This document shows positions 21,577 through 64,000 of a DNA stretch of 64,000 nucleotides, one piece after another; position 1 is the first letter of the stretch; each line of letters begins with the position of its first letter. Position numbers and translations under genes: made by a program. The notes below the pieces were generated by a model. It saw nothing but the letters and a program-made list of their open reading frames with translations, made no database searches and was not told the origin of the DNA. The stretch is from Somniosus microcephalus (Eukaryota), in the NCBI GenBank assembly GCA_052327205.1, contig CM126222.1, forward strand, positions 59,396,001 to 59,460,000, written 5' to 3'.

Positions 21577-21807
21577 TGTTATAAATCTCATCATTCATCA
21601 AGAAACTACTCGTGAAATAACGCTGGACGGCCAGCTGGTGGCGCCGTCCAAGGAGTATAAATACTCGGGCGTCGGCCCCAGCTTTCCAGGGACATTTTGT
21701 AAGACAAGGAGCGAGTGAAGTACAACTAGACCTCCATGTTCTGAAACAAGTTGATTAAAGCCTTGCTTTATACTCAAACCAAGTGAGTAGTGAGTTTTAT
21801 TACGTCA
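21577..21807 (+). mobile_element. Solo LTR (231 bp)
   Basis: TG...CA ends, perfect 5-bp TSD AGAGG, TATAAATA and ATTAAA signals. A second copy lies at 47824-48050. Confidence 0.9.
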
Positions 21808-23045: not shown

Positions 23046-23664
23046 ATGTAAGCTATCAATCTCAGCTGGGTGGACTGGGGAACAGCATTGACTGGAGATG
23101 TGAAGTACTTCCACAGAGGGAAAATCAGGGACTGAGTCATGCAGTAGCACACTCACATATCATGGAGCAGGCATTTCAAAAGCATGACACATAATGGGCT
23201 GGAATAATATTGCTGAGATTATGAATGGTTTAGTAGAAAGTAAAACATGAGGAAAATAACGCATTAGGGGAAGAAGAAGGTTGAACCTTTGTAAACTATA
23301 GTGTTCCACAGTGCTTGCGGAGTGCTGTTAATCAGCTTAGGTGACTGCCACAAGAATTGTAACCCTTTGGGTGCCATGTTGAAGGGTTATTATACCATCC
23401 AATTGCAAGGCAAAAGTACCTATTAATGGGTTGTGTTTCTATAGTAGATAACAGGATTGACGCATTAACAGTTACATAGTCTTGCAAACTATTGCACATT
23501 TACTTAGGTCATACTAGTAGGACGAGTTCTTTTCGCTGTAAAGTTGTGATTGAGAAAACTTATAAAAATGGGTCAACGTAGTCTTTGAAATTCATTACTT
23601 CATTAAACAGTAACATTCCAAAGCAGTTAAACTTGCATCAATTGTGACTCAGCTTTGGCGTGAG

Positions 23665-24248
23665 TGTTCTGGACTTATGGACATTATGGACATTTTACAT
23701 GCAGATAGCACCCTCTGGTGGTGGTTATTGTGTTAGCAGTGTTTGTATGCAGCAGAGGTCATTTGACCTTTCTACCTTTCTTCCTGTTTGACCCAGGAAG
23801 TAGAATTCCAGGAAGAACCTAACTGAGTAATGGAGGATCTTCCATGAGGGATCCTCAATCCAATGTAATCTGATCTCATATGTTAGGCCAGGCGCAATAT
23901 CTGTGAGTATCTTTGTTTGTTAGCATAACAGCAACTTTGTCAGTGTAGTATTTTGACAATACTATGTTTATGAGAAGTAATAGTTGATATTTACAGAAGT
24001 ACAGTCCAAATGTTAGTTAGTTATACAATTAGTCTATTCTACTGTTGTAAATATGTTTATATCTTATGTAATATCGAATGTATAGTACTCAGTTTATGTA
24101 AAAAACATACTTTGTCTTTGTTTACAGTTTCACAAATTTGTTCAAGTAAAGCTTCAAACAGCAAAACGGCTTCACGAGGAATTATTTGAATATAAGTGTT
24201 TAACTTGCTGGATAACTAGATAGGAGCATGTCTAGCGAGGCCAGTACA
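23665..24248 (+). repeat. 5' LTR of the BEL/Pao element (584 bp)
   Basis: Direct repeat of 28524-29105. I count 9 substitutions and one 2-bp indel by eye. Confidence 0.95.
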
Positions 24249-24343
24249 GTGAAAAGATAGCAATACGGCTAGCTGTGAAGAGTGGAGCAGCAGGAACTCA
24301 GAGTGAGCCTTAACCTCGTAGACCACACCTACCTCACATCAAC

Positions 24344-27300
24344 ATGTCAGAAGATAATGACGAAAATGCTTTGCAGCGAGGAGAAGACCTTAAACAGGCA
24401 GATGAAACTGTAGAATGTGACAATCGGTCTATAAGCTCCGGTTACTTCAGATCGCAAGCTGGTTCACGGTCATCTGGTGGTTCTAGAGTAAGCGTGGCCA
24501 TCGCCAGAGCACGAGCTAAGCTAGTAGCAGCTCAAGCCAGAGCTGCGCATGCGAACAGTGAAATAGAAATAAAAGTAAGACAGGCCCGTCTTCAAGCTGA
24601 ACCGCAAGCCGAACAGGCCCGCCTCCAAGCCGAACAGGCCCGACTCCAAGCCGAACAGGCCCGACCCCAAGCTGAATTCCAAGCCGAACAGACCCGTCAC
24701 CAAGTGGAACGCCAGGCTGAACAGGCCCGTCTCCAAGCCACATTAGACGCTCTGCAGCAACAAAAAGAGATAGATGCTGCATTAGCTGAGACACAAGTAT
24801 TCAAGGCAATTTTGGAGGGAGCTGACCCCGAGGCAGCTTCCAAACCTTTAATTCCCGTTTCGCGGCAGAGTCGACGACAGCGCACCATAGATTACGTGAG
24901 CGACCATGCCGACATACAGTTTACAAGAGAAAGGGATGAAGGCCCGCACATCTGTACAGATGCAAGCACTTCATATAACATGCCCCAAGTTGCCAATCAA
25001 GGTCAAAGTAGACAGCGTGCCTCAAGCCGCAGTGTCTCCCCCAGCAGGATGGAAGACACGGTGCAGAGGAATAGAACGCTGGATAGAGAAAGTCAGCAGC
25101 GAACCCCCTCTCGTTTCCTTGAGACCCCCAACAGAACCCCTATTCAGGGCAACCCTGGCACAGGTCCCAGTACCTATGACCTTGCCAAATACCTTGCACG
25201 CACCCAGCTGGTGACTACAGGGTTAATCAAGTTTGATGACAGGCCGGAGAATTATCGGGCTTGGAAGTCCTGCTTCCACGATGCCATATCGGGCTTAGAC
25301 CTGTCGGCAGGAGAAGAGCTCGGCCTCCTTATCAAATGGCTCGGCCCAGAGTCCGCCGGACAGGCATGCAGGATAAAAGCGGCCAATGCGGGACATCTGC
25401 CAGCGGGGTTGAAGACGGCTTGGGCAAGGCTGGAAGAAAGCTACAGCTCACCTGAAGCCATTGAAAGGGCTCTCTTTGACAGGTTGGAGAACTTTCCGAG
25501 GTTGACGAGTAAGGAACCCCAGAAGCTCCGCGACCTTGGAGATCTGCTGTCGGAACTCGAAGCCGCAAAGCAGGATGGCTACCTACCCGGTCTATCGTAC
25601 TTAGACACTTCCAGAGGGGTAAGTGCCATCATTGAGAAGCTTCCATTTAACCTGCAGGAGAAGTGGATAACGTTTGGATCAAAGTTCAAGCTAAAGCACA
25701 ACATGGCCTTCCCACCATTCTCTGCGTTTGCAAATTCATCCGTAAAGAAGCCAAAGCCAAGAACAACCCCAGCTTCAACCTCTTCTCCTCCCGCCCAGCA
25801 CTTGCCAGAAGAGACAAGTTTGACAGACATGGAAAGACACCAACATCTGTCCACAAAATGCAAGTGTCTTCAACTGAGAACACAAAGGTTCAGAAGAAAC
25901 CTGAGGATATGAGCAAACAATGCCCTATCCACAACAAGCCCCATCCTTTAAAGAAGTGCAGAGGCTTCAGGGAGATGTCCCTGGAAGATCGGAAACAATA
26001 TCTTAAAGAGAACTCTATATGTTTCAAGTGCTGCTCTTCCACGAGCCATCTCGCCAAGAACTGCAAGGTAGATGCAAAATGCACAGAATGTGAAAGTGAT
26101 TGGCACATTTCAGCACTCCACCCAGGCCCAGCTCCTTGGAAGTCAGAGTCGTCTCCTCCCGCCTCAGAGCATGGCGGGGAGAGAGAGGGAGCTGCCGGTC
26201 CGGAGATTACATCCAGGTGCACCGAGGTGTGTGGAGAAGGAGTGAGTGCAAGAGCATGCTCCAAGATATGCCTCGTTAATGTGTACCCTGTAGGACGTCG
26301 CCAAGAACCTGAGAAGATGTATGCCATACTAGACAAACAAAGCAATCGTTCTCTAGCAAGATCTGAGTTCTTCAACATCTTCAAGATCAAAGGAAGTCCG
26401 TCGCCTTACACGCTGAAGACGTGTGCTGGACTTTCAGAGACAGCCGGCAGGAGGGCCTGCGGTTATGTTGTTGAGTCAGCCGACGGGAAGATTAGCCTCC
26501 CCCTTCCTACACTCATTGAATGTAATCAAGTCCTCGACAACCGTTCTGAGATTCCCACTCCGAATGCAACTCGTCATCACCGTCATCTGAGACGCATTGC
26601 AGACGAGATCCCACCTCGTGATCCAGATGCAGGCATACTTCTGTTGTTGGGAAGGGACATCCTGAGGGTACATAAGATAAGGAAACAGATCAATGGTCCA
26701 CATGACGCCCCTTTCGCCCAAAGGCTAGACCTCGGCTGGGTCGTTGTTGGAGAAGTGTGCCTCAAGGGCGCTCACAAGCCATCTCAGTTGAGCACACTCA
26801 AGACTTCCATCTTGGAGAATGGTCGTCCAAGCTACCTTACCCCATGCAGTAGTCAGATCCGAGTGACAGAGAAGTTCAGTCATACGGCCCAGCCTCAGAA
26901 ACCCCCAGCGCTGATCTCCGCAGACAGCACACAGATGATGCTCACTGGAGAGAACCCGGGTCAGTCAGTCTTCTGTCGCACCGCCAATGACCACAAACTT
27001 GCTCCATCGATCGACGACATGAGGTTCCTCCAGATTATGGACAATGAGGTCTCTCGTGACAGCTCTAACAGCTGGGTTGCACCCTTACCCTTCCAGAACC
27101 CCAGACGATGGCTGCCAAACAACAGGGAGTATGCCTATAATCGTCTTAAATCACTTCGTCGCACACTAGAGAAGAAGCCAAAGATGAAAGCACACTTCCT
27201 AGAATTTGTAAAGAAAATGCTTGTCAACGATCATGCAGAGATAGCTCCTCCACTCCAGGAAGGCCAAGAGTGTCGGTACCTCCCTTCCTTCAGAGTCTAT

Positions 27301-28481
27301 CACCCCAAAAAGCCGGAACAGATCCGTGTGGTGTTTGACTCCAGTGCACCATATCAGGGAGTCTCTCTCAACGACATACTCCTCACGGGGCCTGATCTTA
27401 ACCACAGCCTCTTGGGAGTACTCATGAGATTCAGGAAAGAGCCCATCGCCATCACTGCCGATATCCAGCACATGTTTCATTGCTTTGTGGTGAGAGAAGA
27501 CCACAGAGACTTCCTCTGCTTCCTGTGGTATTGAGACAATGACCCCAACAGAGACATTGTGGACTACAGGATGCGTGTCCATGTCTTCGGGAATAGCCTG
27601 TCCCTTGCTGTCGCCATATACGGACTGAGGAGGGCTGCCAAGGAAGAAGACGATGACTTTGGCAGTGATGTGAGAGGGTTCATCGAACGAGAGTTCTATG
27701 TCGACGACGCACTGAAGTCATTCCCGACCAAAGCAGAGGCTATCAGTACCCTCGGACGAGCTCAGGAACTACTTGCACTATCCAACCTCAGGCTGCACAA
27801 GATAGCCTCTAACAGACCAGCAGTGATGAAGGCATTCCCCCCTGAAGATCGTGCTAAGGACGTCAAGGATCTAGACCTCTTCACTGATGACCTCCCCCTA
27901 CAGCGTAACCTAGGAGTGTCTTGGAACATAGCAACAGACACGTTCACGTTCCAAGTCTTAGATGCCAAGAAATCCTTCACACGTAGAGGAGTGCTCTCTA
28001 CAGTCAACAGCCTATACGACCCTCTCGGCTTCTTAGCCCCTGTCACCATACAAGGCAGGCTGCTCCTCAGGGAACTCTCCACACGCGCTGAAGAGATGGA
28101 AGCAGAGTGGGACAGATGGAGAGACTCACTCCAAGACTTACAGGAGATCCGAATACCTTGCTGCTATATGTCCTTCTCTCCCTTAAATGCCCAATTCAAA
28201 GAGCTTTGTGTCTTTGCAGACGCATCCGCTAAGGCCATTGCAAGTGTGGCTTATCTGAAGGTCACCACTCAAGATGGAAAAAGCAAAATCGGCTTCGTCT
28301 TTGATAGGGGTAAGTTGGCGCCCCAGCCAGACCTCACCATACCCAGATTGGAACTGTGCGCAGCAGAACGCAACCTACCCCCTCACAGCAGTCTACGGAA
28401 GCTGCATCCTATCGTCGACACCGACGGCCCGTCTCTGAGGTGGTTCTTCTTTTGTCGCCAGAGGACTCCAGTGACAAGTAG
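24344..28481 (+). pseudogene. BEL/Pao gag-pol polyprotein, disrupted
   Basis: Gag core (KFDDRPENYRAWK), three Zn knuckles (CPIH..H..C; CFKC...H...C; CTEC...H...H), protease YAILDKQSNRSL, RT IRVVFDSSA and YVDD, RNase H VFADAS...TIPRLELCAA. Lesions: frameshift near 25730, stop at 27532-27534, deletions near 28090, 28365 and 28425. Confidence 0.92.
24581..24740 (+). repeat. 21-bp coding tandem repeat (AEQARLQ heptads) in BEL gag
   Basis: Repeated GCCGAACAGGCCCGxCTCCAA units, with 12-bp spacer variants. Confidence 0.85.
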
Positions 28482-28523
28482 AGTTCGGACTATGTGGAGT
28501 CGTTAACGACCCCAGACGGGGAG

Positions 28524-29105
28524 TGTTCTGGACTTATGGACATTATGGACATTTTACATGCAGATAGCACCCGCTGGTGGTGGTTATTGTGTTAGCAGTG
28601 TTTCTATGCAGCAGAGGTCATTTGACCTTTCTACCTTTCTTCCTGTTTGACCCAGGAAGTAGAATTCCAGGAAGAACCTAACTGAGTAATGGAGGATCTT
28701 CCATGAGGGATCCTCAATCCAATGTAATCTGATCTCATATGTTAGGCCAGGTGCAATATCTGTGAGTATCTTTGTTTGTTAGCATAACAGCAACTTTGTC
28801 AGTGTAGTATTTTGACAATACTATGTTTATGAGAAGTAATAGTTGATATTTACAGAAGTACAGTCCAAATGTTAGTTAGTTATACAATTAGTCTATTCTA
28901 CTTTTGTAAATACGTTTATATCTTATGTAATATTGAATGTATAGTACTCAGTTTATGTACAAAACATACTTTGTCTTTGTTTACAGTTTCACAAATTTGT
29001 TCAAGTAAAGCTTCAAACAGCAAAACGGCTTCACGAGGAATTATTTGAATAAGTGTTTAACTTGCTGGATAACTAGATAGGAGCACGTCTAGCAAGGCCA
29101 GTACA
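28524..29105 (+). repeat. 3' LTR of the BEL/Pao element (582 bp)
   Basis: Direct repeat of 23665-24248, preceded by the PPT. Confidence 0.95.
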
Positions 29106-29224
29106 GTGAGTGTCATATCAGCTGTCATCTGTTACATCGTTAACAGTTTGCAGAAGTTCAAAAAGTAAGTAATTAGATTTACAGTGGCAATTTATAAACG
29201 GGGACCACATTTACTAGCAATATA

Positions 29225-47823: not shown

Positions 47824-48050
47824 TGACGTAATAAAACTCACTAACCACTTGGTTTGAGCATAAAGCAAGGCTTTAATCAACTTGTTTCAGAACATGGAGG
47901 TCTAGTTGTATTTCACTAGCTCCTTGTCTTACAAAATGTCCCTGGCAAGCTGGGGCCCACGCCCGAGTATTTATACTCCTTGGACGGCGCCACCAGCTGG
48001 CCGTCCAGCGTTATTTCAGAAGTAGTTTCTTGATGATGAGATTTATAACA
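47824..48050 (-). mobile_element. Solo LTR, same family as 21577-21807
   Basis: Reverse complement of 21577-21807 with few differences, and its own 5-bp TSD GTAAG. Confidence 0.9.
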
Positions 48051-54045: not shown

Positions 54046-54960
54046 CATAGAAACATAGAAGATAGGAGCAGGAGTAGGCCATTCGGCCCCTCTAGCCTGC
54101 TTCAATGCGATCATGGCTGATCATCCAAGTTCAGTACCCGGCCCCTGCTTTCTCCCCATACCCCTTGATCCCTTTAGCCTTAAGAAATATATCCAACTCC
54201 TTCTTGAATATATTTAATGAATTGGCCTCTACTGCCTTCTGTGGTAGAGAATTCCACAGGTTCACCACTCTCTGGGTGAAGAAATTCCTCCTCATTTCTG
54301 TCCTAAAAGGCCTACCCCTTATCCTTAGACTGTGACCCCTGGTTCTGGATTCCCGACCATCGAGAATATCGTCCCTGCATCTAGTCTGTCCAGTCCTGCC
54401 AGGATTTTATGTTTCAATGAGATCCCCTCTCATTCTTCTAAACTCCAGTGAGTACAAGCCCAATCGACCCAATCTCTCCTCATACGTCATTCCTGCCATC
54501 CCAGGTATCAGCCTGGTGAATCTTCGCTGAACTCCTTCCATGGCAAGAATATCCTTCCTCAGATAAGGCAACCAAAACTGCACACAATACTCAAGATGTG
54601 GCCTCACCAAGGCCCTGTACAACTGCAGCAAGACATCCTTGTTCTTGTACTCAAACCCTCTCGCTATGAAGGCCAACATACCATTTGCCTTCTTAACCGC
54701 CTGCTGCACCTGCATGCTTACCTTCAGCGACTGGTGCACAAGGGCACCCAGGTCTCGTTGCACTTCCCCTTCTCCCAATCTATTGCCATTCAGATAATAA
54801 TCTGCCTTCCTATTTTTGACACCAAAGTGGATAACCTCGCATGTATCCATGTTATATTGCATCTGCCATGCTTCTGCCCAATCACCCAAATTGTCCAAAT
54901 CATCCTGTAGTTTCTCGGCATCCTCCTCACAGCACACACGCCCACCCAGCTTTGTGTCGT
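54046..54960 (-). mobile_element. 5'-truncated CR1 LINE
   Basis: ORF 54407-54937 (LQDDLDNL.DWAEAWQMQYN...LYRALVRPHLEYCVQFW...RRMRGDLIET) and a CATAGAAACATAGAA tail. Confidence 0.92.
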
Positions 54961-55239
54961 ATGTAGAGCTACATTTTAATTAATAGTAAGCATGACGAGT
55001 TTCAATAAAACCAGCTTTACGGAAACATGTTCATACCTTTTTGTTTTGGTCAGCTTGATATTTATGAACTCCCATTGCCATGCTTGAGAATCTCCAAACT
55101 AACCTATTGAGAAATCTATGTAAATAGAGTTTCCATTGCCTGATATGGAGTGCACATTTCTTTCCTTGTAGGGATACACTCCCGGTAACCCCTTCCAATA
55201 GCTGTCGTTCCAAGCTTGAGTTTTCTCTCTATATAATAG

Positions 55240-55404: not shown

Positions 55405-57605
55405 GTGAGCGACAAGTCCGTAAAGGCTGAGCTCACCTTTCCTGCGACTGTTTAATGTTTATACTGAAAAGTAAGGAGCAGGAATTAAAGAAACACGAGG
55501 ACCTAAGTTTTTATGTGTATGTATGTATTTAAAGCAGCAAGGGGGTGCGTGAGAAATGTCGACTGTTGCATAATGTTTATGCTGCTTTGGCTGTGCTTTC
55601 AGAATTTATACAAAACTACAACAAATGTGTGCTTTTCATATTTCACAGAGCAATGGTGTACTACACAGCCCACGGCCTGTTGGACTTTATTTTAAATGCG
55701 TTTGTAGTTTCTACGTTGTTTGGCTGGCTTTGACAAAATCTTTTTTAAAAGGAAAAATTTATCAGCCTATTGTATATAATTTTCTATTGTGCATTGTGAA
55801 TAATTAATTGCCTGGAAAAAAATTGCAGTTTGGCAGCATAAATCTATATTGAAATTATACTGATTTTCTGAAACAATTACCCTCTATGTTGAAGTACACA
55901 TGAATTATTCTCTACCTGCTCATTACTTTTTTGTTTTTGCTGTTCATGGAGTACTTTTAAACCCTTCATCCACTATGTACTGAAAAACGTCTTAGTGCTC
56001 CGAAACGTGTTTTAATTTTATTTTGTGCTTGTTGACTTAGAAGAAATTCATTGACATTTCCTTGATATAATGTGGAAGTGCTGAATAAGAGCAGTGCAAA
56101 TGAGGTGTTATAGTGGGTTGGTTCATTGATGTACCAGCGTGCTGTACAATGGAGTCGCAGGATGCCTGTTTGAGCTGCTGGTTTCCCCACACAGTGAGTT
56201 CTGGATCACGGCCAAGTTGTTGGGGAGTAATCAAGTGGGGGTCAGGCACTTTCCCAGAGGCAAAGAGAAATCAGAGAATCAAAGTGGACCATTCTTGCAC
56301 AACTCCCAAGTATTCAGCTCATAGCAGTATGAACAGAGGTCTTGGAGCAGGTCTCTTGTTAGTTGAGTGTACTGTGGAGGGACCTAAAAGGGGGAAGAAA
56401 GATAACTGGTTAGTTTATCTCACATAAGAGGCTTCTTCAAGCCTACATTTTGAAAACTGGTCCTTAATTGTATATTTTTCTCTTTAAAAAAAAAAAAAAT
56501 ACAGGATTGGTGAATATTGATGTAATTTTATGCCAATATGATTTATAGAACATGATTGAAAATAAAGGTGCAACTTGAGATGTGACAGTTTTATAGACAA
56601 TTATAGGTGAATGGTGACGGGGCATAAAACAGAATAAAGGCTTTTGTGTAGTTTGTCAGTGACTCAGTGAATGCTTCATATTAACGCTTAAGATGGAGGA
56701 CTTTTTAAACTTTGCGGGAAAAAAAATCTGTCCCCCTAGGATTAGGGCTGACTAGAATCAGCTGTGCACGTCTACTTTTCCAGTTAATTCTAATTGAAAT
56801 GTGGTGTCTTGAATGCAGTGGGGATTATTTGATAATTAATTGTGGCAAACTGAATAAAGGACAAAGAGTATGAATTTTGCACACTGCTTAATGTAGTGTT
56901 TCTCTACAATTTAAAACGTAACATTCTAACACAAGGAGGTTGTGCGGTTGCAAGGCTTAAATAAGATTCATAGTCCACAAGTAAAACTTGGCTGGATAAC
57001 ATGAGTTTCTTTTGGGCACCTATATGAATGGAATATAAAACTCCAGTGAAATGGACCTTAAACACACAGCATCATTGGGTCACCCTGAAGGAACATTTCC
57101 CCCCCCCTCTATTTTCATCTTGTATTGGTTTATCAGTACCACTATACTAGCCTAAACTATGTCGTGGCTGCTATTTAAAGCAAAGATATTTGAATGCAGG
57201 GGACTTAATTTCTTCTGAATTTACATAAATTTACTTTAAAAAATAAACTAGTTTCTGGTAACATTAAACAACCACTCAAAAGAGATTTATACAAATTCAA
57301 TCTTTTGTAGCTGATTTGTGGCAAGTTTCGTTTGGTGACCAAGTAACATTGTGGGGGAAGAAAAGACGCTTGATGCCCTGTGGCTTTCATCATCATCTTA
57401 ATAAAGCAGAGTATTATTTAGATCAAAAATACATCTATCTTGTAACTCTGCAACAGCCTTTTTAATTGTATGCATTTTATTTAGAGTTCATTTAAAGTTA
57501 TTCCTTGTAACTTTTGCAAGCAATGGGCTTTGTACCGTGAGTTACCCTTGTTCTGCATTTCCAAGTGTTGAATAGCCAACGCTTCTTAATTTATGAAATA
57601 ATAGC

Positions 57606-59023
57606 TGTAAGGGGTTTTAGATCGCAGAGGTTTCTCTCTCTAGAGGCCTCTCTCTCTTGCACAGTAAAACCGTGAGTGGTTCGACCCACTCGCCCCTTAG
57701 ATTCTATACTCTGGACTTTGGGGCAGGAACTACAATGTAGAGAAAACTCTTATAGACCAAGTTTGATGAAACAAAATGGAATTTTATTGCATAATGTAAA
57801 ACAAATCAAAATGCAAGCAAATAAGAAGGTACAAGGGAGGGGAAAACACAAACAAATCATAACGACACAGTACTAACTAAGGCAAATACAGACATATTAT
57901 ACTCTACAAAGATCATCATAAAATGGGGAAAACACACGGAGCATCGAGGGACAACAACTCATGTTAATTATACCCTTAAATGTCCACCCCCTTAAACCTA
58001 TCTAGATCTGATTATGAAGGGCCAGAAACATGCTCACCAATCCAACTAGGAAGTGTAAGGTTTTGAAACAGGTCTGCGTTTGATCCTTTCAGGCGTCCCG
58101 TCTCCACGTGGTTGGGTGGAGCCCCAGCGAGCTGCGCCACACCTCTCTTCTGAGGTGGGGGTCGGGGACGGCTGGACACCGGCTGGTCTGGATGTCGGCG
58201 GGGTCGGGGATCGTTTGCTCGATTCCGGTCAGAGGAGCCTCGGGCTGGCCCCCATCATTTCTTCAGTTTCTTATTGTCTCTTCTCCCGAGCCGGAGTGGG
58301 TCGATGGCCTCCCGTTTCGTCAACGGCCCGGGGTTGGTCGATGATCTCCCGATGTTTTACCCCGGGGCGGGACGCCGGCTCGAACCGTCTTCTTCTCCTT
58401 CTTCTAGCGATGATGCTACCGATACGATGGTAGCACCACGATGGCTTCCCTATTCTTCCTACCCCTGGGTTCCCAGATATACTTCTCATCAGAAGCCCTT
58501 ATCTCGCGCCAAATCAGGTTAGTCTTTTGTTTTAATTTTTGGCGTGCTGGGAGCACAACGGGGTAGTTATTATATTTTAAACTGTTCTTGGATGGCCGGT
58601 AACGGGCCATCTCTGGTCTGGAATGACCTTCATTGTTTTTAATGTCCTAGTGATGTCCTTAACGGGTCCTTGATGCTCTTCTCATGAATATGAAACTGTT
58701 CCCTTTTGTCTGGTTAAACATTCAGATGGCCTTTATCTACAGGCCGATCTTGACTGGATCTGCATCCAATCTATATGTATATGTGGGTGTCTGGTTTCAT
58801 TCTCTCAGAAACGGCTTCCAGAACTTACTGTGGGCTGAATCCACAAAGCTGTCTGAGGACTGCAGGAACCATTTAAAAGTGTCCCAATAAGTTGGTCACG
58901 GGGTCTGGCGGCCATTTTGAATGCCCCTTTTTCCTAGGTTTCTTTTAAAACAGTCTTTAAAATCATGGCCTCTTCTGCCATTCGACCCTTTATAATATAA
59001 AGTTCAATTTTGCGAATCCTACA
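57606..59023 (-). repeat. Putative 3' LTR of the ERV (about 1418 bp)
   Basis: Minus strand starts TGTAGG directly after the purine tract and ends CCTTACA. AATAAA at 57783-57788 (minus). The partner LTR is outside the window, so the ends are inferred. Confidence 0.7.
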
Positions 59024-59418
59024 CTCACCCCTGATACTGTAACTTGCTTGAAGTATCATAATTCTGGGTGAGCAAAATGTTCTGACTTTCCATAATCAAA
59101 CCATCCCCAGTATTTACCTATCTATGACCCCACGACACATGCATTTCCCATCTCAGAAAAACCTACTGTACATTAAGCATCTATAGATGGTAATACTTCA
59201 GATGTGAAATTTGACATACTCACTTCCAGGCGTGGAGGGGGGCCTAATACCCTTACATCACCTGGTGCACACACACTATCTTTTAATAATAACACATCTA
59301 ATAAACTTCAAGAATAAAAATAAAGTACACACACAAAAAATCAAATGCACATGAATACATATCAAAATAATACAGAGGAGGGAGGGAAAACTTTAACTTC
59401 ATACAGAGCAGCAAAAAT

Positions 59419-61769
59419 CTAAACGGGTGTCTCTTCCTCTACCCGCACATAATGCTCCCTCCATTCCCCCCTGTTCTCGTACTTTTGCGAATGTTTGACC
59501 TTTTTACAGTGTACAAACAGTAAATAAACTACAATGATAACCTGGCACACTACAAGAATGTGGGAGGCTATCCTAATCCAAGAAGGGACTTCTATATTAG
59601 TGAACAGGTCCCACCACGGTGGGGTCACTATATCCAATATGTCTGCCCCATCTCTAAAGTCTTCTGCTCCAGTGTATAGAAATGTTTCTGTGAAACAACA
59701 ACAGCTTTTAATATCTTGGTGAGGTGTTCAGGGAGAGGGGGAATGATATATCCAAAATGTGCAATGAATCGCTACAGATCGGTGAAATTCTCTTTAACAG
59801 TGATGTGGACAGTGGAAGGTTCAGGAATGGGGACAATTCGCTCTTGGGCCACTTGAACTTCTGCCCTGGGCTTGAAACAGAAGCTGCTGTCACTAACCGG
59901 ACACCAACTGTGCTGTCCATGTTGGTAGTGGGGCGCTGCAGTGGTGACACAGTATGCCCCACCTCCTATATATGCCACCTGTGGGGGCACATGGCCTTGT
60001 GCCATTGCCTCCATGGTACAATTTATAGGCTCCACGCCAGCAGTTCTGAACCCGCACTGTGGTTTTGAATGGGCATTCAAGTGCTGGGGACACAGGATGA
60101 TGTGTGCTCCCCGGCTCCGGCACCCCGAGAGATCAGTACCCGTCATTGCATGCTCCCATCGAATGACGTAAGGTGGGACCCCTGTGTAGCGTATGTGCGC
60201 ACCCCCCTGAATGACTCCAATGTTCTCCACTCTGTATACCGGGGCGGGTTTAGCTGTCTTTCCCATCACCGGCATTCTTACCACTATACCCATAATGGTG
60301 TGATTAGACCGTCCACAGTCCACTGGGACTGGTTAGGCTTCTGAAGCTAGTCTGAGCTGGCACGGACTCAATGCATTCGCAAAAGGGTGGAGGGCTGCGA
60401 GGTACTTGTTGCTGATCCAGGAGGGGACTAAACCTTGTTTCAAATCCTCCAGGTTACTGCGGCCCTCGCCCAGTAACCACGCCCCGTATAGCACACAAGC
60501 TTCGTTCTGCGCAGCCTGATCGGACGCATTCCGATCCTCCCTGATGAGAGCATTTACCATTCTGGTGTGTTTTTCCAGCTCAGCTATAATTTCTTTTAAG
60601 TGTAGTGTCATGGCCTGGTCCTCATGTAACTCAGAACCCACTACCTTGTTCTCGTCAGTCAGTATCTTTCTTAACTGTGTTTTCAAACCATTGATTTGGG
60701 TTTGCAGCTCCACATCATCCAGTGTGTTGATGATGGAAGTTCTTATATTAAAAGCTGTGAAAATATCATTTACTGCACCCCTCCTTTGCCTCCCTATCCT
60801 GTCCAAGACCTCATGTGGTGTGGTGTACAATTCGGCTCTGTCAATATCGGCAAAGTCGAATTCGTAAAACTGTTTAAACATGTTTGTTAACAGGACCTGG
60901 TACAATTGTTCCATTTCCTTGGGGCACCATTCGGGCAAGTGCACCTCGGTGAGGTTTAAAATCACCGAAGCCACCGCGTAGTGTACCCCTTGGTACAGCA
61001 CCTGACCTGTGGGTACTAATACCAATCCGTTCCCGGGTCCCTTGGTAGTGGTGGGGCACCCTTCCTTGCGGGCTTTGGCTACCGGAATCGTGGGCAGGGG
61101 CTTGCGGGGGCGGGTGATGAGCTCAGTGGCGTTTACTGGGATTTGAGAGTATGGGTCTCCGCACGCCCGTGTGCTGACATCCCACCTCATTCCTCTCCCA
61201 GCATCTTGCCACTGCCTTTGGAAAAAGATGGAGACGCCTGTGGGGCAAGCGCGTTCTGAACCCCACATACAGATGTAGATCCCCTCATCTGGTTCCCACC
61301 ATTTGTCCCAACAGACACTCAACCCCCCATGAGTTCCTGTAATAGTCCGATGGGTTTTGTTACCCAATCTCTCCCATTCGACCGTGGAGTTCTTCATGGT
61401 GCTGCTCAACTTGCGCAGCCACCACCAGCGATTCAAAGGTACGTGTCCATTGCATACCAGGCAAATCTTCTTCCCGACGGTAACGCTGACTCTGGGTGCA
61501 ATGATCCGCACCCTGGGGCACATCAGAGATGTCTCTCTGTATGCAAACCCCATCTGGCTGGAGTATTCAGTAGAGTTCGACCCCAGCCAGCCTGGCCATC
61601 TTCCTTCATGGAAGTAGGCGGCAGTCTCTTCAGCGTCCCGCGGGCCGGTTCCGTCAATCGCGATGGGGCCTCTGTTGCCAGAGCACCCGTACACTGTGGA
61701 GTCCTTAGTGCGGCCCCGATAGGCCACACTGTACCCGATCATCATGGCCACGACAAGGATCCTGCTCAT
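59419..61769 (-). pseudogene. env: env: F-type class I fusion glycoprotein with an N-terminal Ig-like domain (about 780 aa reconstructed)
   Basis: Signal peptide, furin site RQRR|GAVNDIF (aa 327-330), heptad repeats, Cys-rich region, TM segment ILVVCQVIIVVYLLFV and short tail. In-frame stops at 60333 and 59772, 1-nt frameshift near 59648. Confidence 0.85.
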
Positions 61770-61988
61770 CTTTCTCCTGGTTCCTGCAACAAATTAAACA
61801 ATGCCGCCAGGCTCCCGAGAGATTCTGGCTTAGGTGAAGGCATGATCGGGTCTTCCGACCTCGATCCAAACAAACACACGTACTTGGCAGATTCCAAAAC
61901 TACTTAGCACTAATCACTTTAATATTTACACAACTTAAACTTAAAACCTAAACTTATGTACAGCGCCGCCCGTCCCCGGGCGGCTTGC

Positions 61989-64000
61989 CTAATCCCTGAT
62001 TGGATTGCAGCTTGCCGCTCCCTGCGGCAGGGCTGCGGTGACCTGTGGCTTGGGTTCCTCGCAGCCTTTTGCTGTCAACTGGGGACTGCGTTCTGCCAGG
62101 GGTTTCCCAAGTCTGCGTTTACTGAAGGTGGGGGAATCGGGCCAGGGCTTCCTTGGCTGGGGCGCTCGAGGCGACCTGCGAGGGGGTGCCTTTGGTGAGG
62201 CTCCCGTAGCGAGTAGACCTTCGGGTGGGACCTTGGCTCTCACAGCCCGTGGCTCATCCACGACTGCCGGCTTTGGCTCCCTTCCCTCAGGCTCTGCCCC
62301 CTTGGGATTTGGATCTGTGGCAGACAACTCCTCCTCACCTGTCCCTACAGGTGAAGGATCTCCGCCCCCAATTTCTACCTCCCCCAAACTTGAGTCGAAG
62401 GCGGGATCTCCGTCCTCTGACTCCACCTCCTCCAGAATCGTACCAAGGGCGTGGCCCAGCTGTTCGGGCTCCTCGGCTCCGATAGCGTTCGGATCAGGGG
62501 GAGGGCCTTGATCTTCGGGCTCCTCCTCATCCGAGTCCCAGGCCATAGGGGAAACCTCCCCCCAGGTGGGCGGGACAGCTTCTCCTTCCAAGCAGGCTAC
62601 AACGCCAGCCTGTGGGGTCTGTGACTTTTTGCACGCCTCAGGCTGAAGATTTTCACCCTCAGACCTGGCTTCGGTTGCTGGTACTCTTGCACCTGGCTTA
62701 AACAGTTTGCACTGATTGATGTGAAACCATTTAGTGTGCCGGGGCAACTTCACTGGATATACCATGGGGCTGGCCTTGTCTACAATGCTGTAGGGCCCCA
62801 TGTACAGTGGTTCTAAACTCCCTACTCGGGCATAGTTTCTCACCATGACCTGATCTCCAACTTCCCACTCATGTGCTTTTCGGGGTTCAAGCAGCAATCG
62901 GTTGCCCTGATGCTGCCTTCCCATGTTCCCAGCCGCTTGCCCATAAATCTGTTTCAGGCGCTCAAAGAGGGTTCGGGCAAACTTGTCCCGATTTACCTCT
63001 TGGAGCTGACCCTCAGTGAGCACCGGGGCTAGTACATGGGTGGGGGTTCGCATGACTCTCCCAGTCATTAATTTGTACGGGGAGTACCCCATACTTTTAG
63101 ACTGGCTATCCCGGATCCCCATGAGGACTAGGGGCAAGGCCTCCGCCTATTTCTGGGGCGAGTCCCTCATCTCCTTCCTCAGCTTTTCTTTTAGGGTGCG
63201 GTTCATGCGTTCCACAATCCCAGATGACTGTGGATTGTGGGCCACGTGCCACTTCCCTTCAATGCCTAAGAGCATGAGGGTGTCTTGCATCACTTGGCCA
63301 GTGAAATGAGCCCCTTGGTCAGACTCCACAAATCATGGTAGTCCCCACCGCGAGAACACCTCCCGGACCAAGATCCTGGCAGTACCAAGTGCCGTGGCTG
63401 TTCGGCATGGGAAGGCTTCTACCCACTTGGTGAACACATCCACCAGGACGAGGCAATACTTAAAACCTCCCTGGGCGGTGGGCAGTGGCCCGATGTAGTC
63501 GATCTGAATCGACTGCCATGGTCCCTCTACTCTCCTGATGTGTCCCAAAGGCACCTTCCTTTTCTGGGGGTCTGGGTTGTTCGCAGCGCACACTAGGCAA
63601 TTGGCGCAGAATTCACGGACATCGTCCCAAAGTCCCGGCCACCACCCCGCCTGTTCCACCCGTTGCCAAGTGACCTCAGGCCCGGGGTGTCCTGCTCCTG
63701 GACCTTCATGGGCCAGTTGAAGGAATTCCCTCTGGTGCTGCTGCGGCACAACCCACTGTTCCTTTCGGAACAGCATGCCTTCCTTGATGGAGAGGGCTGC
63801 TGTACCGTATGGACCCTCTACTTCCTTGCCCTCAGTGATGGCATTGAGGACTGTTTTTAGGGCGGGATCTAGGGTTTGGACGGTCTTGAGGTCTGGGGGC
63901 AGTGTTACCCCTGTGGTTCCCTGAGTCCCATCCCTGCCTCGGATTACTGCCATGGGTTTGGACCCATAGGGATCCCAGAAAATGCCGGTGCGGGCACCCT
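61989..64000 (-). pseudogene. pol: pol 3' part: RNase H end, integrase (HHCC, DDE, GPY/F) and long C-terminal extension
   Basis: AHEGPGAGH...CANCLVC; [25 protein letters not shown]; PLYMGPYSIV. Three track ORFs lie in one frame, separated by two stops (63333, 63147). Confidence 0.92.

Follow-up and report, generated by a model that had tools for sequence, protein, structure and literature searches.

The retroviral remnant at the end of this stretch raises the question of what kind of retrovirus left its envelope gene there and to which class that envelope belongs. The window, meaning the whole 64,000-nucleotide stretch of Somniosus microcephalus DNA analysed here, ends in the 3' part of one broken retrovirus copy, which occupies the last 6.4 kb on the minus strand and consists of an RNase H tail, an integrase (IN), an env gene and a 3' long terminal repeat (LTR). 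The initial annotation recognised a paramyxovirus- or baculovirus-F-like envelope protein (Env) and assigned it to a lokiretrovirus-like provirus or an env-bearing Gypsy lineage. The F-like nature of the Env is upheld by the analysis, while the element itself is probably a broken copy of a high-copy class III endogenous retrovirus (ERV) of cartilaginous fish, related to the snakehead retrovirus (SnRV), with a self-contained F-type Env that carries its own head.

Relatives of the Env core, searched with the in-frame stops read as X among 1.84 billion proteins, number 36 at E <= 0.001, and because these are joined by a fold match the Env family is real beyond chance. P0037, one of the 36, proved to be a repeat protein of no relation to Env. 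The 28-row Env alignment omits it, together with the chimeric or partial sequences P0002, P0003, P0005, P0014, P0021, P0023, P0024, P0030, P0039 and P0040. The named relatives are from skate, sawshark, smooth-hound, bamboo shark, horn shark, catshark and two frogs, with those of skate and sawshark closest (60-75% identity), in keeping with the cartilaginous-fish affinity first proposed. Two sawshark gene models, P0005 and P0014, join env pieces to Niban-like and cadherin-like host genes, fusions that represent either annotation artefacts or exonisation.

The AlphaFold2 model of the core from the 28-row alignment has a predicted local distance difference test score (pLDDT) of 63.6 and comprises beta domains together with a helix of 62 residues and another at the C-terminus. 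Foldseek matches it to 243 PDB chains at E <= 0.001, and all 43 of the rows listed are paramyxo- or pneumovirus F proteins, the best being human parainfluenza virus 3 (hPIV3) F at E 7.2e-10. The top 16 rows of VIA are made up of 14 F chains and two foamy Env chains, with the first unrelated row at Z 5.2; the best F match reaches Z 10.5, at a root-mean-square deviation of 18.2 over 322 residues. In BFVD, 42 predicted viral structures match at E <= 0.001, among them the F proteins of lispiviruses, fish filoviruses and baculoviruses; the ESM Atlas assigns Baculo_F (0.95) and Fusion_gly (0.92) to the core. The predicted Envs of two walleye epsilonretroviruses, walleye epidermal hyperplasia virus 1 (WEHV-1; E 3.1e-07) and walleye dermal sarcoma virus (WDSV; E 6.8e-04), also match the F core in BFVD, a likeness to F that was not found stated in the literature examined. 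Pfam searches give Fusion_gly at E 0.14 for one Env piece alone, no fusion family for the X-read Env, and neither a retroviral-envelope nor a fusion family for the 28 aligned members. Against the PDB, the Env sequence has 0 matches at E <= 10 and the Env profile three coiled-coil chance matches, while a profile homolog search of Env returns 15 close relatives only, with neither SnRV nor Loki Env among the names. Structure prediction, the three fold searches and the ESM Atlas agree on an F-like rather than a gamma- or beta-type Env, and the structure comparison suggested in the initial annotation places paramyxo- and pneumovirus F on top. As modelled, the Env core almost certainly has the F-type (class Ib) fold; model and motifs together present the predicted features of an F core, namely a three-domain core formed from both subunits, heptad repeats HR1 and HR2, a furin site and a transmembrane (TM) helix.

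On the minus strand the core opens with an F2-like segment (60780-61040; translation, model and fold match), which runs for 87 aa from GPGNGLVL at 61040 to the furin-type site RQRR at 60791-60780, close to the 85 aa or so originally read. The post-cleavage chain is indeed long, the stop at 59421-59419 lying about 452 codons on, and the motifs quoted for it are present. It contains a fusion peptide assigned by position (60714-60779), the continuous 62-residue HR1 or central helix (60438-60623; model helix H140-201), the Cys-rich beta domains I and II of the F fold (59835-60296; model strands E249-E402, with matches to F over residues 1-408), a segment holding an in-frame stop, a linker and the HR2 helix (59649-59774), and a final segment (59419-59652) with the membrane-proximal region, the TM helix (59577-59506; 19-residue hydropathy 2.56) and a cytoplasmic tail with YVRV (59451-59440), a tail motif also found in the skate relative P0002. 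The hydrophobicity of the putative fusion peptide is weak; the segment is amphipathic, with a best 15-residue mean of 0.99. Three lesions interrupt the gene, as first described: stops at 60335-60333, just ahead of the Cys-rich beta domains, and at 59774-59772, and a frameshift near 59640-59660. The marks of a gamma-type Env are likewise missing, with no CX6CC in the 708 aa of the first frame and no Pfam retroviral-envelope family.

The short pre-cleavage part described in the initial annotation does not stand. The same open frame begins 243 codons earlier, at an ATG at 61769 followed by a hydrophobic signal peptide (61722-61769; hydropathy peak at residue 1), where the relatives also start, and the N-terminal subunit is therefore about 314 aa long. 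Behind the signal peptide lies a conserved segment without fold assignment (61506-61721; pLDDT mostly <50), with an invariant WPGWLGSNS-type block in 5/5 aligned rows, followed by a probable immunoglobulin (Ig) V/I-type domain (61230-61505), the proposed attachment module, and a Pro/Thr-rich linker (61041-61154; 14/40 residues P or T) that ends in a Cys-Pro motif common to distant relatives. Residues 17-243 of this arm match two skate gene models at 74% identity, like the core. Between residues 89 and 180, a Cys, a Trp and D-x-G-x-Y-x-C are spaced as in Ig domains, motifs that are kept in relatives. Nearly all 50 VIA rows for the arm are Ig-superfamily or antibody chains by title and length, aligned to model residues 73-198 at Z 4.9-5.7, a range (5-5.7) that the tool calls common. 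Pfam Ig matches occur in four of the nine proteins scanned (Ig_3 at E 0.049 here; best E 0.0027, in P0004), and the ten best family-bearing ESM Atlas matches all belong to the Ig clan, with scores up to 0.90. The arm is thus likely to contain an Ig V-type fold, as judged from models and profiles. Distant relatives keep the Cys-Pro end of the linker, but their arms are unlike one another: Ig-like in P0035 and, by UniRef label, also in P0015, and Cys-rich without an Ig match in P0013 and P0028. Comparison of the arm profile with the P0035 and P0015 arms gave no arm-to-arm match, which leaves a shared ancestry of the family's Ig-like arms hypothetical.

The identity of the virus is approached through its enzymes. 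The element continues beyond the window edge at its RNase H end, with its reverse transcriptase (RT) outside the window, and the RT evidence comes from a proxy Pol. A search with the integrase gave 109 Pols, 84 of which covered 70% of the RT. The best match, P0044, has 87% identity to the window IN over the 238-aa core and is its sister at 100/100; besides IN it contains a protease, an RT, a tether and a second RNase H (PF17917/PF17919 plus PF00075 in Pfam). Two separate gene models, P0009 and P0021, join P0044-type pol pieces to this env type, and these pol pieces show no match to P0067 (Nothobranchius), the sole Loki-like row in the trees, which was matched by eye to printed Loki RT/IN motifs. 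In a mixture-model RT tree of 42 rows, P0067 falls outside (95/88) a 27-row clade that holds the proxy together with Xenopus, Latimeria, turtle and teleost Pols and foamy, gamma and epsilon rows, as it does in a quick RT tree of 84 rows. The proxy lies outside the foamy clade and outside the gamma/epsilon clade, and is separated from the Gypsy rows at 100/100. In the IN tree (45 rows) the window IN stands apart from Gypsy at 97/89, while foamy IN sits with Gypsy. The proxy has the canonical-retrovirus set of LPQG, YVDD and dual RNase H; PQG at that RT site is shared by the proxy, foamy, gamma, epsilon and SnRV sequences, whereas PFG occurs in P0067 and in 24/24 printed Loki RTs (PMC7947760). 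Identity of the proxy RT is 53% with a Xenopus Pol, 35-39% across five simian foamy Pols and 33% with P0067, and a hand count against the printed SnRV RT gives about 90/200 (45%), above the foamy, gamma, epsilon and Loki-like rows. By eye, the proxy RT and the window IN also match, motif by motif, an elephant-shark ERV grouped with SnRV by Han 2015. The fish foamy-like ERVs ZFERV-2 and AciFLERV were rejected by eye on their RT motifs. Sequence comparison through the proxy makes it very likely that the Pol belongs with basal canonical retroviruses related to SnRV (class III, clade Huo of Xu et al. 2018).

The lokiretrovirus label of the initial annotation is probably wrong, given a linked proxy Pol with canonical RT signatures that lies outside the Loki-like branch. 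An F-like Env alone is no diagnosis of Loki, as the fold also occurs in foamy Env (PMC11468914) and is matched by the predicted Envs of walleye epsilonretroviruses. A divergent shark lokiretrovirus that gained an N-terminal arm is accordingly an unlikely source, though several observations speak for it and weigh against an SnRV-like assignment. The F core start (GP..G.VL), the RxxR site and the cysteine spacing are visibly common to Loki Env; the IN matches are named NYNRIN-like, and Loki IN is placed near CGIN1 (PMC7947760). The RT evidence is that of a proxy, the trees hold one Loki-like row and zero SnRV rows, and support for the key branch drops to 83/74 in an LG+G4 analysis of 24 rows. 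Approximately unbiased (AU) tests fail to reject the proxy with Loki (p 0.128) or the proxy group with Loki (p 0.306), and in the IN tree the window row and P0067 share one open fork, the window IN being 42% identical to P0067 and 39-49% to other dual-RNase-H rows. The RT and IN phylogeny called for in the initial annotation therefore gives a canonical clade for the proxy RT, and for the element's own IN a position apart from Gypsy, in an open fork that includes the Loki-like row. The tether and second RNase H of the proxy, the element's own RNase H tail being present in the window, are also found in Loki, but they are common to all canonical retroviruses and not diagnostic. Against a Loki origin stand the LPQG motif, the RT identities and tree support given above, the finding of Loki in 0/6 chondrichthyan genomes screened (PMC7947760), and a polar fusion peptide and 243-aa arm unlike those of 22 Loki Envs. 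An env-bearing Ty3/Gypsy (errantivirus-like) element is far less probable still. The top Atlas matches are arthropod Baculo_F/Gypsy clusters, the PDB sequence search finds Ty3 Gag-Pol at E 1e-10, and invertebrate Gypsy elements commonly have an F-type Env (10.1101/2023.10.26.564294); yet foamy integrase scores better (E 4e-14), the 24 best IN matches are led by Pols with a second RNase H, and Gypsy rows are excluded in both trees, so that the Gypsy reading is largely refuted.

The function of the arm is weighed separately. It may be a putative receptor-binding module, an analogy that is slightly favoured, whereas the same virus could, as a possible though less favoured alternative, have used an arm captured from a host Ig-superfamily gene as a glycosylated shield or immune decoy, with entry left to the F core. 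Four N-glycosylation sequons (residues 65, 127, 137 and 213), the replacement of the arm by a Cys-rich one in P0013 and P0028, and Loki Envs that function without an arm are in line with a shield or decoy. Entry of respiratory syncytial virus (RSV) and human metapneumovirus relies on the F core. A shield fits less well with the succession of domain, Pro-rich linker and fusion core, which parallels the IgV-like receptor-binding domains (RBDs) of gammaretroviruses (10.1101/2024.03.17.585361) and the N-terminal binding modules allowed on an F scaffold (PMC11468914), and with an arm as conserved in the skate relative as the core. Further points count against an SnRV-like virus with an Ig head: the arm model is poor (pLDDT 43.9) and has no Foldseek match at E <= 0.001, its VIA scores are in the common range, all Pfam Ig scores fall below the curated cut-off with none at all in five of nine proteins, and the fusion peptide is unusually polar for its kind, the best 15-residue mean being 0.41-1.02 in the five shark and skate relatives P0002, P0006, P0007, P0013 and P0016.

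For the preferred SnRV-like ERV with a self-headed F-type Env, the ancestral virus would have made env from a spliced RNA. The Env would run from signal peptide through the probable Ig V domain, Pro/Thr linker, F2-like part, furin site, fusion peptide, HR1, beta domains, HR2 and TM helix to a YxxPhi tail. By motif and family knowledge it would trimerise and be cut at RQRR by a furin-type protease. As the F2-like part forms an integral piece of the F core, the Ig arm would presumably not be lost on cleavage. The arm may bind a cell-surface receptor, the role played by the separate H, HN or G protein for paramyxovirus F, after which, on the predicted fold, HR1 and HR2 would in all probability refold to a six-helix bundle.

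Upstream of env, the C-terminal end of the second, retrovirus-type RNase H of pol occupies 63963-63998, its first residues aligning to P0044 from 769 onward, right behind the last RNase H helix of that protein. The integrase (62691-63962), identified by Pfam, translation and motif positions, has an HHCC zinc domain, a D-D-E core (at about 63500, 63320 and 63212) and a C-terminal SH3-like domain, with matches to Integrase_H2C2 (E 7.7e-18), rve (E 3.6e-06) and SH3_Tf2-1 (E 1.1e-05), and is interrupted by two in-frame stops (63335-63333 and 63149-63147). The present copy is unable to make full-length Env or integrase. The integrase frame continues into a 233-aa tail (61989-62690), acidic and then Pro/Arg-rich on translation, which has no match among the proteins fetched in the analysis; the tail contains an internal 37-nt repeat, and reads over it are strongly sense-skewed in one RNA run. 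A candidate env splice acceptor, a T-rich tract followed by CAG, lies at 61784-61800, 14 nt upstream of the env ATG, with no matching joint among the RNA joints listed. The 3' non-coding region and probable 3' LTR extend over 57606-59257. The outer edge at 57606 is marked by a change in read depth and loose ends at 57605, while an 8-bp inverted terminal repeat suggests an inner edge at 59257. A motif scan finds AATAAA at 57788, and no second copy of the LTR is present within the window. A GC-rich stretch of the 3' region (58012-58610, minus strand) holds short Arg/Pro-rich frames, one with seven consecutive Arg, and could be a decayed accessory open reading frame like the SnRV 3'ORF; several small deletions in other copies map to it.

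The element belongs to a large repeat family, with summed depth in two contig sets of about 16 or 0 on the flank versus 1e3-1e6 across the element, a depth that gives no copy number. Two RNA runs of one species contain 6583 and 3659 element reads, of which only 135 and 57 are at least 99% alike; since so few reach this identity, the RNA reads come mostly from other copies. Over the 5' part of env the reads are skewed about 9:1 to sense in one RNA run, with no skew in the other. Both RNA runs, as well as DNA contigs, contain a form that lacks the whole env gene (59520-61947 missing, joint 59519-61948), and its occurrence in DNA contigs indicates that env-less derivatives exist as DNA. A search for RNA carriers of the element listed none among the indexed runs, and scans of viral contigs found no locus.

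Elsewhere in the window, an LTR retrotransposon on the plus strand (23662-29109) has 591-nt LTRs that are 98% identical and three long frames, which by their motifs look like BEL/Pao Gag, protease and RT; no integrase frame of at least 200 aa is seen in it, and 21-nt tandem repeats lie inside it at 24580-24743. A C-terminal fragment of a long interspersed nuclear element (LINE) reverse transcriptase, presumably of CR1/L2 type by its motifs, occupies 54131-54979 on the minus strand. An inverted pair of 213 nt with 96% complementarity (21595-21807 and 47824-48036) probably represents two young copies of a short interspersed nuclear element.

Published work already describes F-type Envs in Loki, in foamy viruses and in errantiviruses, and SnRV-like ERVs in sharks. 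No paper was found on an F-type Env or Ig arm with an SnRV-like Pol, a search whose coverage excludes most subscription papers and Repbase, and the Env of SnRV itself might already be of this type. Because the enzymes look SnRV-like and not Loki, the sequences indicate a wider distribution of the F-type envelope among retroviruses than has been described so far. A tentative extension is that the F-type fusogen is the ancestral retroviral Env, that gamma and beta types are later replacements, and that the core gained exchangeable N-terminal heads, here a host-captured Ig; the F type would then have been kept in Loki, foamy viruses, walleye epsilonretroviruses and the SnRV-like lineage, whose hosts are sharks, skates and perhaps also frogs. 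As for replacement, one SnRV-like ERV of a shark has an Env of gamma type already. In PMC9040795 the F-type Env serves as a mark of Loki and as an argument for separate env gain by Loki and canonical retroviruses; were the ancestral reading true, a single env origin would be favoured over these independent gains. A canonical class III Pol combined with an F-type Env, beside the foamy and epsilon cases, makes the question testable by comparing the Env tree with the Pol tree. Surveys with gamma- and beta-type queries (10.1101/2021.11.23.469661) would miss this abundant family.

Among known systems, the closest in Pol are lineage I of CmiERV in the elephant shark (PMC4422223) and the SnRV-like class III ERVs (clade Huo, PMC6001957), which share with the present element the RT and IN motifs by eye, the cartilaginous-fish host type and the order RNase H, IN, env and LTR; a weak purine tract precedes the 3' LTR in both CmiERV lineage I and this element. 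The Env of CmiERV lineage I is gamma-type, its printed DNA showing LQNRMALD and CX6CC on inspection by eye, in contrast to the F-type core with an Ig-like arm found here. Loki Env (PMC7947760 and its supplement) has by eye the same F-type core, with its GP..G.VL start, RxxR site and similar cysteine spacing, but among the 23 printed Envs the 22 complete ones with an N-terminus all (22/22) lack the 243-aa arm, the F core beginning a few residues after the signal peptide, and their fusion peptides are of a strongly hydrophobic FLGGL type. Paramyxovirus and pneumovirus F proteins (hPIV3 1ztm, RSV 3rki, Newcastle disease virus 3maw) are alike in predicted fold, domain order and subunit proportions, although sequence identity is only 10-16% and F has no attached binding domain; baculovirus F and the lispivirus and fish-filovirus glycoproteins are likewise similar in predicted fold. 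Foamy Env (8rm1, VIA Z 8.1; PMC11468914) also has an F-type core within canonical retroviruses, but its RBD has its own fold and is inserted inside the N-terminal subunit, whereas the arm described here is N-terminal, and foamy and walleye Envs measure about 980-1320 aa versus about 780 aa. RBD-C of gammaretroviruses resembles the arm as an N-terminal IgV-like domain before the fusion machinery, but the Env that carries it is gamma-type (class Ia), and the sequence and fold searches made here showed no link between it and the arm; in 10.1101/2024.03.17.585361 the host origin of such IgV-like binding domains is left open. In PMC11468914, F is regarded as a minimal scaffold that accepts binding modules at the N-terminus or between the subunits, and the swappable N-terminal arm of the shark element would provide a natural example of such a module on a minimal F scaffold.

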